A stretch of DNA of 64,000 nt from Clostridia bacterium (lineage in GTDB: Bacteria; Bacillota; Clostridia; Christensenellales; DTU072): contig JAEDHK010000007.1 of the NCBI GenBank assembly GCA_016297005.1, forward strand, positions 27,465 to 91,464, in the 5' to 3' direction. Below the pieces are notes generated by a model, which was not told the origin of the DNA, did no database searches, and was given only the letters and a program-made list of their open reading frames with translations. A program made the translations under genes and the position numbers. Below, in pieces: positions 12,746 to 17,707 of the stretch (positions are counted from its first letter, which is position 1; each line of letters opens with the position of its first letter).

Positions 12746-13642
12746 TTATAAAGAGGCAAGCTCTTCCGTTTTTTTCTTCGGTACGGTCGGTAAAGGCGGG
12801 ATCCCTTCCTTATAAAAAATCTTTTGTCCTTTCTTCTTTGCGCGTATGCCCAAAAAGACGATCAATCCGATGCAAACGGCAGCTGCGATATAGCAGAACA
12901 AAATAACGCTGTTAAAACCCAACGCCTTATCCACAACGTTCGGTTCGTCCGCGCGGATAAATTCCAGACTGCCGCGCACCATGCAGTACCATGCCGGATA
13001 AGAGAGCGTCCCCATACCCTTGATGTCGATATGGTAATATAAATAGGCTAATACAAAAAAGCCGATAAAATTAAGCACGCCCTCATAAAAAAAGGTCGCC
13101 TGATACCAACCGCCTTCGTCGGCAATATAGATTGCTAACGGAAACCATTGATGCGTCGGATCGGTAACGAGTTGTCCGTATAATTCCTGGTTAAAAAAGT
13201 TCCCCCATCTTCCGATGACCTGAGCAATCAGAACGGTAGGCAAAACAAGATCGACCGTCCGCACAAAATCCACTTTGTAAATCTTGCACCAAATAAGACC
13301 GCCAAGCACGCCCCCGGGCACGCCCCACATAATGGTTAGACCCCCTCTCCAGATTGCGATGGTATTAACGAAAGCGTCCCAGTCGTACGGAGAGGTAAAA
13401 TAATACTTATAGTTAGAAACGACGTACCCGAGACGGGCGAAAATGATCGCCATAGGGATACAAATCAAAAATAGCGTCAGCACGTCGTCGCTCTTTACGT
13501 TAATCCTCTTAAAACGGCGAATACAAATAGCCAGAGATAATAGCATACCGATGGTAATCAGTATTCCATACCACGCTACCGATACCTTACCGATGGAAAA
13601 AGCGATCGGCGTAACTTCTCCAGTCCAATGCATCGACGACAT
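12746..13642 (-). CDS. lgt: Prolipoprotein diacylglyceryl transferase
   Basis: GRWGNFFNQELYG signature and a polytopic topology. I start it at MSSMHW with a GGAGG SD. Only 18 nt separate it from iorA. Confidence 0.85.
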   Translation of the reverse strand: MSSMHWTGEVTPIAFSIGKVSVAWYGILITIGMLLSLAICIRRFKRINVKSDDVLTLFLICIPMAIIFARLGYVVSNYKYYFTSPYDWDAFVNTIAIWRGGLTIMWGVPGGVLGGLIWCKIYKVDFVRTVDLVLPTVLIAQVIGRWGNFFNQELYGQLVTDPTHQWFPLAIYIADEGGWYQATFFYEGVLNFIGFFVLAYLYYHIDIKGMGTLSYPAWYCMVRGSLEFIRADEPNVVDKALGFNSVILFCYIAAAVCIGLIVFLGIRAKKKGQKIFYKEGIPPLPTVPKKKTEELASL

Positions 13643-13976
13643 TACAGAGCCTCCATAGAAAAAACTGCTTATTATTATATAACAGAAACAATAAATATGC
13701 AATTCTTTATTTTTATCAATAAATGAAAGATGTTGAGAAATAACAACCTGCTCTCCTTTTGCAAAGTGTGAAAACTTACGTCCTTCCCGTACATAGCGTG
13801 GGAGAAAAGGGAGATTTTGTCCGCACGCCTAATGGCGTGGAGAGATGGTTTTTAATGGACTCCGCGCAAAAAGATAGCTTTATTCTGTTGCCTGTTTTTT
13901 TAAAACCCCCACCACACAAAGTGTGTCCATCCCCCTTTACAAAGGGTGTAAACAACCTTTGTACTATAAAAAAATT

Positions 13977-13996
13977 CGCCCCGGCTCTGCGGGGCG
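13977..13996 (-). terminator. Terminator of the ABC transporter operon
   Basis: CGCCCC-8 nt-GGGGCG, followed on the minus strand by AATTTTTTTATAG. Confidence 0.7.
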
Positions 13997-14010
13997 AAAT
14001 AAAACTTTTT

Positions 14011-15138
14011 TTACAGAACTTTCGATAAAAATCCTTGCAAACGCTCGTTCTTCGGATTTCCGAACACCTGTTCCGGCGGGCCATCCTCGGCGATCTTACC
14101 TTGGTCGATAAAGAGCGCGCGGGTGGCGACTTCTCTCGCAAATCCCATTTCGTGCGTTACGATGATCATGGTCATACCTTCTTCGGCAATCTGCTTAATA
14201 AGATCAAGCACTTCGCCCACCATTTCCGGGTCGAGCGCGCTGGTCGGCTCATCAAAGAGCATCACCTTCGGATTCATCGCAAGAGCACGTACGATGGCAA
14301 TACGCTGTTTTTGTCCGCCCGAGAGGGTAGACGGATAGACGTTGGCCTTTTCGGCAAGTCCGATCCGCTTCAAAAGCTTCATGGCGTTTTCTTCGGCGGC
14401 GGCGACGATCTCTTTCCTGTTCTTATACGGCGGATCGATCTTCGTCTTCGGCGTCGGATAGGTTACCCTCTCGATAAACCGTTCGGCATTTTCGATCTTG
14501 GTCTGAATGGCAAGACGTTGTTTGGTCAACTTCGGATCGTAATGGACCTGCTTTTTCCCGGCCTTTTCTTCCACTTTCTTAGTTTGTTCCCAGGCTTTTT
14601 CGATCGGAACAAGCTCGTCTTGCAACTTCTTGATCTCTTCCTTCTTCTGAGCGATCTGTTTATCGATGCGCGCGTTCAGCTTCTCTTGATTTTTGGCAAG
14701 CCACTTGTTATACGTCGGCATAATGAAGTTATTCCACTTTGCCTTTCTCAGCTTTTCCGTCTCCACCTTAACAGGCGCAAGAGTAATGTTTTTCATTACG
14801 GTCAGGTTATTGAACAGATTAAACTGTTGGAACACCATACCGATATTCCTGCGACATTCGTTGATATTGATCTTCAGGTCGGTCAGGTCCTCGCCCATAA
14901 AGATAATCTGTCCCGCCGTAGGGTCCTCCAACACGTTCAGACATCGCAAAAAAGTAGTTTTTCCTCCGCCGGACGGTCCAATAATGGCAATACGATCGCC
15001 CTCGTAAATATCAGCGGAAATATCATCGAGAACGAGAAGAGAACCAAAACGCTTGGTCAGGTGTTTTACCTCGATAATAGTCTTCTTTTGCACGGAGGTC
15101 TCCGCAACGTTATTTACTTTATCTGTCACTTTTTGCAA
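14011..15138 (-). CDS. Polar amino-acid ABC transporter ATP-binding protein with a ~115-aa helical insertion
   Basis: Walker [11 protein letters not shown]-loop MVFQQ, signature LSGGQKQR, Walker [13 protein letters not shown]-loop VTHEM. An alternative GTG start at 15092 with a GGAGAC SD is possible. Confidence 0.85.
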
Positions 15139-15841
15139 ACCTCCTTTCGATCAGTCTGATAAGTGCGGTAATAACCAAAACAAGGATCAGGTAAACAGCA
15201 CCCAAAATAAGATACGGTACAATATACTCATAGTTACTGTCGGCAATAGATTTAAATGCTTTGGTCAAATCGACGACGGCAATAAAACTGACGACCGATG
15301 TTTCTTTGATAAGCACGATAAATTCATTACCGAGAGTGGGCAAAATATTCTTTATTGCCTGCGGTATAACGACCTTAAACATTGTAAAACCGTAACTGAG
15401 TCCAAGCGTGCGCCCTGCTTCCAATTGTCCTACGTCGACCGACTGGATACCGCTACGCATGATTTCGCTGACATACGCGCCGCTATTCATACCATATACA
15501 GACATGGCAACGATTACTCGATATAGCGTGATATTGATATTCAACGTAGCCGGTTTCAGATTCATCGCCGGGAATAACACGAAGTAAACAATCAACAGTT
15601 GCACCATGATCGGTGTTCCGCGGAAAATGGCGATGTACGTATCAGCAATCTTGCCAAGGACTTTTGTGACGATATTGTTCTGAGGCGTAACTTTAATAAC
15701 GGCAAGGATGGTACCGATGAGTATTCCCAATAACAGACCGACAACGGCAATAATTACCGTTGTCTTCAGTCCGTCTAATACGTCTTGGTATCCACCGTTC
15801 GTGTAAAACGAACGCCAGAATATATTCCAACTTTGTTCCAT
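15119..15841 (-). CDS. Amino-acid ABC transporter permease (His/Glu/Gln/Arg/opine family)
   Basis: EAA loop [22 protein letters not shown] and about 5 TM helices. Confidence 0.85.
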
Positions 15842-16737
15842 TATTTTTTATTCTTAAATACGTTGATCACATCATCAGCCGTCGAGCAAGCATCAAATTC
15901 CGTATTGGATTTCTTAACGATAAGAACCTGAGCGGCACCTTCTTCATAGGCATGGGAAAAAGTAACCGATTGAGCACGCTTGGCATTAACGGTCAAGCAA
16001 GCAAGAGCAATGTCCGCATCTCCCTGCTGAACGGAAGTAACAACAGCGTCAAAGTCCATATCGCTGATAACGAGTTCCATTTCCAATTCAGCGGCTATGA
16101 TCTTAGCAATTTCCATGTCAATACCATAGAATTTGTTTCCGATCTTGTACTCATAGGGAGCAAATTGAGCGTTAGTAGCAAGGACAAGCTTATTGGTGGC
16201 GTTGGCATTTCCGTTCTCAATACCGACATAAACATCGGAATTGGGAGCGGAAGCACTGGCTTCATCATCTGAAATATCGATATCCGCATAAGCGGCATAA
16301 ATAGCATCCAAAGTTCCGTTAGCTTTGATATTATCAATGATGGTGTTGATACTGGCAAGCAGATCGGTCTTATTTTTATTAACGCCGATTGCGTATTGTT
16401 CAACAGTCAAAGCAATGTCGATCATCTTGATATCGTTGGGGTTGGCAGTAACAAGAGTATTCGCAGTAGCCTTATCAACAACAGCGTATTCGATGTTGCC
16501 GTTCTTCATATCGTTAACAGCAAGACCGATAGTCTGATAAGAAGACACCGTCCCGTTCGGAATTCCGGCAAAGCCCCAATCGGCGTCGCCTTTGATATAG
16601 GCTTCTCCGGTAGTACCGGCCTGAGCCCCGATGGAAATGGTTTTTTCACCCTTATTGCAAGCGGCAAAGGCACATACGCAACCGACGGCAAGAACGACTG
16701 CCATGATGGCTATTAAAATTTTCTTTACGTTTTTCAT
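15841..16737 (-). CDS. Family-3 (polar amino-acid) solute-binding lipoprotein with its two halves in permuted order
   Basis: Lipobox FAAC and an AAGGAGAA SD at MKNVKK. It contains GlnH/HisJ-like blocks, but the C-terminal-half blocks come before the N-terminal-half blocks. Confidence 0.8.
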   Translation of the reverse strand: MKNVKKILIAIMAVVLAVGCVCAFAACNKGEKTISIGAQAGTTGEAYIKGDADWGFAGIPNGTVSSYQTIGLAVNDMKNGNIEYAVVDKATANTLVTANPNDIKMIDIALTVEQYAIGVNKNKTDLLASINTIIDNIKANGTLDAIYAAYADIDISDDEASASAPNSDVYVGIENGNANATNKLVLATNAQFAPYEYKIGNKFYGIDMEIAKIIAAELEMELVISDMDFDAVVTSVQQGDADIALACLTVNAKRAQSVTFSHAYEEGAAQVLIVKKSNTEFDACSTADDVINVFKNKK

Positions 16738-16918
16738 TTTAAAGATTTCTCCTTCTTTTATTTGTCCATATCTTACCACCGAAAACGTATCCTAGCAAAT
16801 ATTTGAATGAAAAAATAAAAAATATTCATTATTCGGTATTAAATTATATATTTATGCAAATATTTATGAATAAATTCGTGCATTAAACGAAATTCTTCTG
16901 GATTTTACTCAACAAAAA

Positions 16919-16938
16919 AACGATCTATCCCGATCGTT
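16919..16938 (-). terminator. Terminator of the acyltransferase gene
   Basis: AACGATC-GGGATA-GATCGTT, followed by TTTTTTTGTT on the minus strand. Confidence 0.6.
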
Positions 16939-16957
16939 TTCATATATTTTTACAAAA

Positions 16958-17707
16958 TCAGCCGTACACGACCGGTTCATGCTCGGGTAAAGAGTCGCCG
17001 AGTTCGGCAATTTTATTTTCCAGATAGCGACAGATATCGTCGGCCTGCGTCTCCATAGAGACGGTGGGGTCGTAAGCAATAGGGTCTCCAACCACGAAGG
17101 TATGAATTTTTTCTGCGCAGTAGACGGGGAAAAAGCGCAATATCTTGCCGGTCTCTTGATAATATCGTTCGGCCACCTTAGGAAAACCGTGATTGAACTG
17201 AAAAATATACCTGTTGACTTTGTTTTCCGTGCGCTCGGGGAAGATAACCTGCGGCATACCCGCTTTCATCGTCTCGATAGACTTTTTAAAGGTCATCTTT
17301 TCCACCCGTTCGTCCTTATGAAAAACGGGAATGGGCTCAAACGCCCGGAAAGTCAGTATGATAACGGGCATTAACAAAAACGCAAGCGGATAGAGGATGA
17401 ATTTCGGCTTTCTTTTGTTGAGCACTTTCGTCTTCATGTGACGCCAAAAAACCTTGGAATACAAAAAATAATAGTTCGCCCATACGCGCGCGCGATGTTC
17501 CTTATTAATAATAAAATAAGTGGGCGCGTATATCTTAGTATGATTACAAACGAAAAAAACAGGCTCGTCGTCCGACGGTTTTTCCGTCTTCCAGATAAAA
17601 TCGTTCTTAGGAAAGAACCATCCGACGATCGCCCGCAAGAACTTAAAAACCAAATGCGGTCTCTTGCAACTGTCGTACTCCTTGACAGGGCTGTAAAATT
17701 TTTTCAT
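16958..17707 (-). CDS. PlsC/LPLAT-like acyltransferase
   Basis: FFVCNHTKIYAP (HX4D-like block) and VIFPERTENK (FPEGT-like block). I start it at MKKFYSP. Confidence 0.6.
   Translation of the reverse strand: MKKFYSPVKEYDSCKRPHLVFKFLRAIVGWFFPKNDFIWKTEKPSDDEPVFFVCNHTKIYAPTYFIINKEHRARVWANYYFLYSKVFWRHMKTKVLNKRKPKFILYPLAFLLMPVIILTFRAFEPIPVFHKDERVEKMTFKKSIETMKAGMPQVIFPERTENKVNRYIFQFNHGFPKVAERYYQETGKILRFFPVYCAEKIHTFVVGDPIAYDPTVSMETQADDICRYLENKIAELGDSLPEHEPVVYG

Follow-up and report, generated by a model that had tools for sequence, protein, structure and literature searches.

A family-3 solute-binding lipoprotein gene with swapped halves in a Clostridia transporter operon, and relatives with variable domain order

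A gene for a family-3 (type II, polar amino acid) solute-binding protein (SBP) whose two halves stand in swapped order was analysed in a 64,000-nucleotide stretch of a Clostridia bacterium assembly (contig JAEDHK010000007.1, positions 27,465 to 91,464 of the forward strand). This whole stretch is called the window, and its coordinates are used throughout. The gene had been singled out in a first-pass annotation made from the sequence alone, in which residue blocks typical of the C-terminal half of such proteins were read ahead of a linker and of blocks typical of the N-terminal half. All the quoted blocks were found in the translation; that the gene lies on the minus strand is our addition. 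The gene and its parts are the following (aa, amino acids).

15841-16737, minus strand: permuted family-3 solute-binding lipoprotein gene, complete, 298 aa, start codon ATG, stop codon 15841-15843 (open reading frame list and translation)
16657-16737, minus strand: signal peptide and lipobox, aa 1-27, MKNVKKILIAIMAVVLAVGCVCAFAAC (read from the sequence; Cys27 is the predicted lipidated residue)
16642-16656, minus strand: tether NKGEK (aa 28-32) and junction J1, at which the C-half follows immediately on signal peptide and tether (codon-level comparison with the canonical locus L001)
16288-16641, minus strand: C-half, aa 33-150, TISIGAQAGTTGEAY ... GTLDAIYAAY (matches AncQR 119-229)
16192-16287, minus strand: linker, aa 151-182, ADIDISDDEASASAPNSDVYVGIENGNANATN (aa 151-176 homologous to the canonical tail; NANATN, aa 177-182, tether-like)
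15844-16191, minus strand: N-half, aa 183-298, KLVLATNAQFAPYEYK ... QVLIVKKSNTEFDACSTADDVINVFKNKK (matches AncQR 12-109)

The ATG at 16737 is preceded by the Shine-Dalgarno sequence AAGGAG (16754-16749). An alternative start, GTG at 16779, is used in one NCBI record (P0001, 312 aa), and in the 90%-identity cluster of the protein the gene calls are 298, 312 or 329 aa long, most of them 298 aa. Judged from the sequence, the ATG is the favoured start on account of the Shine-Dalgarno sequence and of the typical signal-peptide beginning MKNVKK. This beginning is followed by a hydrophobic core and by the lipobox FAAC with its cysteine, a lipoprotein pattern with which the hydropathy plot agrees (a single hydrophobic segment, aa 1-30). 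Cys27 is invariant in all 114 relatives that share the order of the window SBP (class A below), and the signal peptide is almost identical to that of the canonical orthologue P0009.

The swapped order was seen in every alignment with proteins or profiles of the family. When PDB chains were searched with phmmer, residues 12-109 of AncQR (4zv1) aligned with aa 184-281 of the window SBP (E 8.7e-14) and residues 119-229 with aa 35-149 (E 1.4e-10), and the next two aligned chains, 6svf and 4i62, gave the same pattern. Eighty-one PDB chains matched at E values up to 0.01, and none of the 60 listed had a stretch colinear with the window SBP over its full length. The NCBIfam models behaved likewise: TIGR01096 matched with model positions 18-120 at aa 177-278, PRK11260 with positions 163-264 at aa 54-155. 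The Pfam check proposed in the first-pass annotation also came out as predicted there, since SBP_bac_3 (PF00497) matched in two stretches with 99.1 bits against a cut-off of 26.4, the best being model 1-95 at aa 184-279. The protein thus belongs to family 3 by profile and departs from the colinear block order of the family; a single colinear full-length alignment, named in the annotation as the outcome that would speak against its reading, was not seen. The swapped order is far above chance. A natural circular permutant has been defined as a genome-encoded protein of the same fold as a relative, its first part being homologous to the last part of that relative and vice versa (PMC3320104). The window SBP shows this relation to the canonical protein P0007: aa 33-173 correspond to P0007 152-292 (79% identity) and aa 184-297 to P0007 36-149 (85%).

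The gene stands at the head of a transporter operon, with a permease and an ATPase gene of the polar-amino-acid type directly downstream; a promoter-like site and a terminator-like hairpin flank the three-gene unit.

15119-15841, minus strand: permease, 240 aa, GlnP-like BPD_transp_1 (family-model match, E 3.5e-39)
14011-15138, minus strand: ATPase, 375 aa, GlnQ-like (family-model match, E 1.6e-90)
16843-16870, minus strand: promoter-like site TTCATA-16-TATAAT (consensus scan, in which such sites were no commoner than in shuffled sequence)
13975-13998, minus strand: strong intrinsic-terminator-like hairpin with a 9-bp stem (7 G-C pairs) and a T run, directly after the ATPase stop codon

SBP and permease are separate open reading frames (ORFs), divided by a stop codon that shares 1 nt with the permease ATG (TAATG, 15841-15845, minus strand); a 2-nt deletion at this site would give an in-frame SBP-permease fusion. 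At the canonical locus L001 the two genes are separated by 3 nt (GGT TAA AAT ATG). A tblastn extension to 15814 was considered as a leftover C-half behind the SBP stop codon, and was rejected as the conserved start of the permease. No second SBP copy was found in the window, and no Rfam match, sought in 16600-17100 as a leader RNA that might hint at the ligand. The ATPase had been called aberrant in the first-pass annotation. It does carry a K/E-rich insertion of about 110 aa (aa about 127-236) between the Q-loop region and the signature motif, and the GlnQ model matches it in two stretches. A tie between this insertion and the permutation was rejected, since long ATPases (372-375 aa) adjoin both permuted SBPs (L003, L005, L018) and a canonical SBP (L006). 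A gene for Lgt (prolipoprotein diacylglyceryl transferase; 12746-13702, minus strand; Pfam LGT match on L018) lies just downstream of the operon; the enzyme would lipidate the SBP, and its adjacency is probably coincidental.

An independent Logan assembly (L018) encodes an identical 298-aa protein in matching surroundings; the genes there run ThuA, AP_endonuc_2, a 271-aa ORF, SBP, permease, ATPase, Lgt. The 90%-identity cluster has nine members from three sources (NCBI, ENA and Logan). The search for homologues of the same order, suggested in the first-pass annotation, showed that 114 of the 120 best database homologues (47-100% identical) share it when a GlnH probe or a canonical member of the family serves as the yardstick. 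Such colinear relatives occur in gut-derived (human and ruminant) reference metagenome-assembled genomes of Eubacteriales, Oscillospiraceae and other Clostridia. In comparisons with orthologues, the non-synonymous divergence (dN) was 0.10-0.18 and the synonymous divergence (dS) was saturated; where dN/dS could be calculated it was about 0.09 in the N-half and 0.2-0.3 in the linker. The permuted gene is under purifying selection.

Canonical and permuted forms of the gene are close orthologues. Six of the 24 closest matches (P0007, P0008, P0009, P0016, P0022 and P0024) are canonical, are 55-85% identical to the window SBP in each half and have practically the same signal peptide. One of them, P0009, is encoded on contig L001, where the neighbouring genes are those of the window gene and the flanks are 81-84% identical by blastn. 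In the same comparison window 16632-16241 aligned with L001 3260-3651 (73% nucleotide identity) and window 16182-15869 with L001 2909-3222 (82.5%): at the DNA level two blocks are cleanly exchanged. A second pair with another upstream context, permuted P0004 (L003) and canonical P0016 (L002), behaved in the same way, and across the comparisons of the P0009 and P0016 loci the flanks were 78-84% identical at the nucleotide level. Divergence from L001 was uneven: the C-half was 73% identical in nucleotides and 77-79% in aa, the N-half 82.5% and 85%, the flanks 81-84% in nucleotides and the permease 92% in aa. The extra divergence of the C-half could be due to relaxed or altered constraint on the half that bears the anchor, or to a different history.

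The origin of the linker can be read from the same orthologues. The C-terminal tail of the canonical proteins, ...AAYGDINISDDEATASAPNSTVFVGVNG*, is homologous to aa 151-176 of the window SBP, and the following NANATN resembles the N/G/S/T-rich tether that stands behind the lipobox of canonical members, e.g. CNNGDNGSTNNGSTNSGNTAKAKLTLATN in P0016. At junction J1 the window reads CNK-GEK/TISIGAQ, to be compared with ...VFQAKGSK/TYIGAQ at the boundary of N-half and C-half in L001, whose own start is CNKDNNGKEK/LTLATN. At J2 the window has VYVGIENG/NANATN/KLVLATN and the canonical protein ends in VFVGVNG*; at J3 the window SBP ends in VFKNKK*. A linker made of the old C-terminal tail and the old N-terminal tether is what would remain after two copies had fused head to tail and shed their outer halves, and linkers of this composition were found in several lineages. 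No evidence of a site-specific rearrangement mechanism was obtained from the junctions, which show only short A-rich microhomologies (AAR/AACGG); no repeat search was made.

A model was calculated with AlphaFold2 from the 114-sequence alignment (predicted local distance difference test, pLDDT, 92.1; predicted template-modelling score, pTM, 0.81). In it aa 33-150 are arranged as beta-alpha-beta-alpha-beta-alpha-beta-beta-alpha-alpha and aa 183-298 as beta-hairpin-alpha-beta-alpha-beta-alpha-beta-beta-alpha, and these elements map one-to-one onto residues 154-269 and 36-149 of the P0009 model, with offsets of +120 and -147. The 32-aa D/S/N-rich linker described in the first-pass annotation is present, and is more than a floppy spacer: pLDDT is 74 at aa 151-160 and 89-98 at aa 161-180. 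In a structure search with a sequential aligner, a canonical model used as control matched family-3 SBPs over its full length (E 1e-18 to 1e-14). Family-3 SBPs were absent from the top 50 of the permuted model, which matched weakly other type II folds (PstS, HisG, MetQ, OpuBC) at E values of about 1e-7, with 8-14% identity and template-modelling scores of 0.3-0.5. No solved chain with the order of class A, or of class B described below, was found in sequence and structure searches of the PDB.

According to the model the native termini, both on lobe 1, would be bridged by the 32-aa linker. The new termini would lie in a lobe-2 surface loop equivalent to AncQR about 109-119 and GlnH about 108-110; this loop connects the helix behind the first hinge strand with the strand after it. 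The lipid anchor, separated by five residues from the strand TISIGAQ, would tether lobe 2 and not lobe 1, and the C-terminus would be on lobe 2 as well. Both halves have the pattern beta-alpha-beta-alpha-beta-alpha-beta-beta-alpha in the model, and the cut may coincide with an ancient pseudo-repeat boundary between lobe 1 and lobe 2; a profile-profile comparison of the two halves for such a repeat was not significant (hhalign E 0.2-0.7).

Residues of the binding site are divided between the halves. The C-half comprises the greater part of lobe 2 together with the second hinge crossover and the final helices of lobe 1, with Q39, T42, D88 and Y115 at the ligand site; the N-half comprises the lobe-1 core, the strand QVLIVKK of the first hinge and a single helix of lobe 2, with N189, F192, F229, T249 and R254. 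When the residues that we take to be the ligand contacts of GlnH were mapped, R75, D157, F50, K115 and T118 fell on R254, D88, F229, Q39 and T42, all five invariant in the 114 members. GlnH F13 fell on F192 (F in 113 of 114), T70 on T249 (T or S) and Y185 on Y115 (Y or F). The alpha-amino-acid contacts characteristic of family 3 (Arg, Asp, Ser/Thr and an aromatic pair) are thus present, and point to an amino acid as the probable ligand. Since contact residues are kept in both halves, the cleft would still be built from both.

The range of orders in the family was surveyed by searching the representatives of 50%-identity clusters exhaustively with HMMER, which gave 176 clusters at E values up to 1e-30. 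The best 150 of these were sorted into order classes with canonical P0007 as ruler (N-half about 30-149, C-half about 150-272).

Canonical single domains: 37 of the best 150
Class A, the order of the window SBP, [150-272][30-149]: 17 of the best 150
Class B, [217-272][30-216], cut at AncQR about 177: 21 of the best 150 and about 8 more probable; members include P0133, P0157, P0164, P0169, P0174, P0180, P0184, P0201, P0211, P0214, P0233, P0241, P0244, P0245, P0247, P0261 and P0266
Tandem N-C-N-C proteins: P0207, P0210, P0249 and P0251
C-N-C (1.5-domain) protein: P0202
Long proteins: about 60 of the best 150

In class B the last 55 or so canonical residues come first and are followed by a linker and by ruler positions 30-216. 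A probable third cut site is represented by P0220, which starts at ruler position about 54, ends in a linker plus QLVVLTNVPFEPFEYVD (the first strand and loop of the N-half) and is the sister of class-B P0241 with 97% bootstrap support. In P0135 (716 aa) a class-A permuted SBP_bac_3 domain is followed in the same polypeptide by a Bmp/PnrA-like binding-protein domain.

A neighbour-joining tree was built from de-permuted sequences (238 columns; 48 class A, 42 canonical and 19 class B proteins), GlnH serving as outgroup. Every basal lineage is canonical, and the three orders are interleaved within a derived clade. The Fitch minimum was 21 order changes, with a range of 17-26 over 100 bootstrap trees, compared with a mean of 48 and a minimum of 41 for shuffled labels. 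Five sister pairs of mixed order had 94-100% bootstrap support (P0245_B/P0162_CAN, P0211_B/P0209_CAN, P0266_B/P0191_CAN, P0241_B/P0220_CAN and P0139_A/P0203_CAN), and in each pair both segments were similarly identical by BLAST. The basal canonical proteins have almost no C-terminal tail. The canonical proteins nested among permutants carry a tail (in P0209 an N-terminal tether) that matches the lineage-specific linker of the permuted sister, as in the P0162 tail SGGEIKPVTTVAKK and the P0245 linker GSEVKPVPTAKKDAS. Matches of this kind argue for repeated, lineage-specific switches rather than a single ancient event.

The long proteins are arrays of two to four substrate-binding domains (SBDs) with a C-terminal BPD_transp_1 permease. 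In many of them, including P0183, P0185, P0188, P0200, P0143, P0223 and P0238, a C-half comes first and an N-half last, the latter stopping about 20 residues before the membrane domain, a layout that can be written SP-[C]-(N-C)n-[N]-TMD (SP, signal peptide; TMD, transmembrane domain). The halves in such arrays might combine into class-A units, close a ring or meet in trans across the dimer. When the window SBP and permease were concatenated, they aligned with P0223 in a single colinear high-scoring segment pair (HSP; query 36-538, target 292-746), and likewise with P0185 and P0238. P0264, in which a class-A domain runs into a permease, aligned over target 1-365 with concatenated query 4-393 (35% identity), and P0138, a class-B domain plus permease, was 42% identical to the concatenated query. 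By these alignments the window operon reads as the split counterpart of an SBD-permease fusion in the class-A phase. The Pfam model of the glutamate-receptor S1 segment (PF10613) ends at aa 276 of the window SBP; the strand at which the array chains leave for the membrane is the one that ends this model, and the likeness to glutamate-receptor architecture is an analogy.

Several other explanations of the swapped order were weighed. An assembly artefact, in which adjacent or paralogous SBP genes were mis-joined into a chimeric order, has to be considered with a metagenome-assembled genome and a family rich in paralogues and repeats. The identical gene on the independent Logan assembly, the nine-member cluster from three sources, the 114 homologues of the same order (47-78% identity) and the lack of another SBP copy in the 64-kb window make this explanation negligible, and mis-assembly, raised in the first-pass annotation as a reservation, can be set aside. 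The gene might instead be a relic in decay, what remains of a trimmed tandem duplication, and might no longer bind ligand or serve the transporter. Its architecture is the expected leftover of a partial deletion in a tandem pair, and the C-half has diverged more than the flanks (73% vs 82-84% nucleotide identity). The intact ORF with Shine-Dalgarno sequence, lipobox and translational coupling to the permease, a dN/dS near 0.1, ligand-contact residues invariant across the 114 members, the confident fold prediction and the standing of the gene as the sole SBP gene of the operon all speak against decay, which we regard as very improbable. An obligate domain swap, in which the halves pair with complementary halves of a second chain to give a dimer or a chain of domains, is unlikely, if less so than decay. 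With a C-half at the start and an N-half at the end, the related array-permease fusions would permit their halves to pair in trans across the permease dimer, and Thermotoga ArgBP reportedly swaps its C-terminal helix; against this, the 32-aa linker is long enough for closure within one chain, the monomer model (pTM 0.81) places the second part of this linker with confidence, and the same segment is a tail in the canonical orthologues.

A fourth alternative concerns only the origin of the order, which may have been inherited from a class-A-phase SBD-permease fusion through internal repeat deletion and fission into two genes. The single colinear HSPs of the concatenated SBP and permease with P0223, P0185 and P0238, the 35% alignment with P0264 and the TAATG overlap, only a 2-nt deletion away from an in-frame fusion, are consistent with such a descent. 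The fusions, however, are 27-35% identical, compared with about 80% for the canonical stand-alone orthologues at the same locus; the alignment gives no direction between fusion and fission, and the linker is equally well explained as canonical tail plus tether. We consider this descent possible but doubtful.

We put at roughly 85% the probability that the window gene encodes a functional lipoprotein that is circularly permuted, binds amino acids and serves the adjacent importer. The protein would be the membrane-anchored receptor of the GlnPQ-like ATP-binding cassette (ABC) importer encoded just downstream by one permease gene and one ATPase gene, and would keep the two-lobed family-3 fold with a circularly permuted chain; ligand capture and delivery to the homodimeric permease would otherwise proceed as in GlnH and GlnPQ. 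Its order would have arisen by in-frame head-to-tail joining of two canonical gene copies into a tandem-SBD intermediate, which then lost its outer halves to leave C-half, linker and N-half, a course that would have been repeated in this Clostridia lineage. Both marks of permutation by duplication, a linker derived from the old termini and tandem or partial relatives, were found, and in outline there is good support for an origin by tandem fusion with subsequent truncation; for the lineage of the window SBP itself the pathway is inferred from these relatives. The first-pass annotation had offered a natural permutant and a trimmed tandem duplication as alternatives. Both are supported, the two being the same thing at different stages, with a linker made of tail and tether.

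Several observations weigh against this account or parts of it. GlnH K115 and H156 are replaced by Q39 and V87. No tandem intermediate was found at high identity to the window SBP, the tandem and partial forms found being 31-39% identical. The permease groups the window with L001 (92%) and L002 with L003 (88%), and for the SBP halves similarity is much the same whether pairs share the order or the locus, so this four-locus comparison fits two switches as well as one switch followed by allele exchange. In the clade of the window SBP the direction of change is ambiguous (bootstrap 32-42%), and the canonical members nested there could be reversions. The tree is a neighbour-joining tree of 238 columns with weak deep nodes, and gene conversion between paralogues could mimic some of the switches.

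A broader proposal is advanced tentatively, as plausible though short of probable: that this Clostridia lineage of amino-acid binders is a hotspot of recurrent permutation with at least three cut sites and many independent switches of order, some of them at orthologous loci, the switches perhaps being adaptive through the moved membrane attachment. On the canonical ruler the cuts lie near 150, near 217 and probably near 54, the first two in lobe-2 loops, and the survey suggests that every stage of the duplication-truncation pathway is present among the relatives. Permease-fused multi-domain arrays use the same phases as the permuted proteins. The switches may have an adaptive rather than a neutral basis, in that the lipid anchor or the permease fusion shifts from lobe 1 to lobe 2. 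In the arrays, the orphan C-half at the start and the orphan N-half at the end may come together as a binding domain although they are not contiguous, either in cis or across the dimer of the transporter.

As a rule, the natural circular permutations that are well documented are ancient events whose intermediates have been lost. Here, orthologues of both orders at one locus and surviving intermediates make the duplication-truncation model directly testable within one family, and matched natural pairs offer a way to assess the effect of chain connectivity and anchor position on folding, hinge dynamics and docking to the importer. Because many biosensors are built on family-3 binding proteins, permissive cut sites found in nature are of practical use. 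A warning for annotation follows as well: the sources label the relatives merely "transporter substrate-binding domain-containing protein".

In the first-pass annotation no description of the arrangement was known for this family. This holds for family 3, natural permutants of whose amino-acid binders we did not find described in the full-text literature searched; it does not hold for SBPs at large, in other families of which natural circular permutation is already known (PMC4990184, PMC2395249). The apparent novelty lies in the family, in how close canonical and permuted orthologues are, in the multiplicity of cut sites, in the survival of intermediates and in the seeming recurrence. In Treponema pallidum, TpMglB-2 (Tp0684) is a lipid-tethered SBP with a natural circular permutation that retains ligand binding; a "Type Ic / Cluster Bc" was proposed for it, and its topology was speculated by its authors to relate to tethering (PMC4990184). 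It is a type I (cluster B) sugar binder without sequence relationship to the window SBP, which matches family-3 models only, and is therefore an analogue. In its permuted part, identity to EcMglB is only about 13% and a fourth hinge crossing is required, and no close canonical orthologues or intermediates were reported (PMC4990184), whereas the canonical orthologues of the window SBP are about 80% identical to it. The glycine-betaine binders and other type II proteins, with identities below 24%, include natural permutations within the same superfamily as the window SBP; the glycine-betaine binders belong to another family (OpuAC), and their permutations are ancient events detected by structure alone, without intermediates (PMC2395249).

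Engineered permutants differ from the window SBP in being man-made, free of a membrane anchor and outside a transporter operon. Those made for sensors based on Förster resonance energy transfer (Whitfield 2015, Clifton 2017) are said to show that family-3 binders tolerate permutation and keep binding. Engineered circular permutants of ancestral family-3 arginine/glutamine binders are cited in PMC7683729. GlnPQ of Gram-positive bacteria is a well-studied case of tandem SBDs in canonical order fused to a permease (PMC8025302; PDB 6h30, 4kpt, 4kqp). GlnPQ has the same SBD family and transporter type, and its tandem in-frame SBDs are the kind of intermediate needed for permutation by duplication; its SBD is fused to the permease through the C-terminus of lobe 1, whereas the window SBP is a separate lipoprotein with a TAA stop codon and the related arrays are phase-shifted. 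With the canonical family-3 proteins (GlnH, HisJ, ArtJ, ArgBP, AncQR) the window SBP shares homology in both halves (E 1e-10 to 1e-14 per half), the conserved Arg, Asp, Thr/Ser and two Phe contacts, and a GlnP-like permease with a GlnQ-like ATPase, and the same role, substrate capture for an ABC importer, is expected. It differs from them in its C-half coming first, in the 32-aa linker across the former termini and in the probable location of its termini and lipid anchor on lobe 2.

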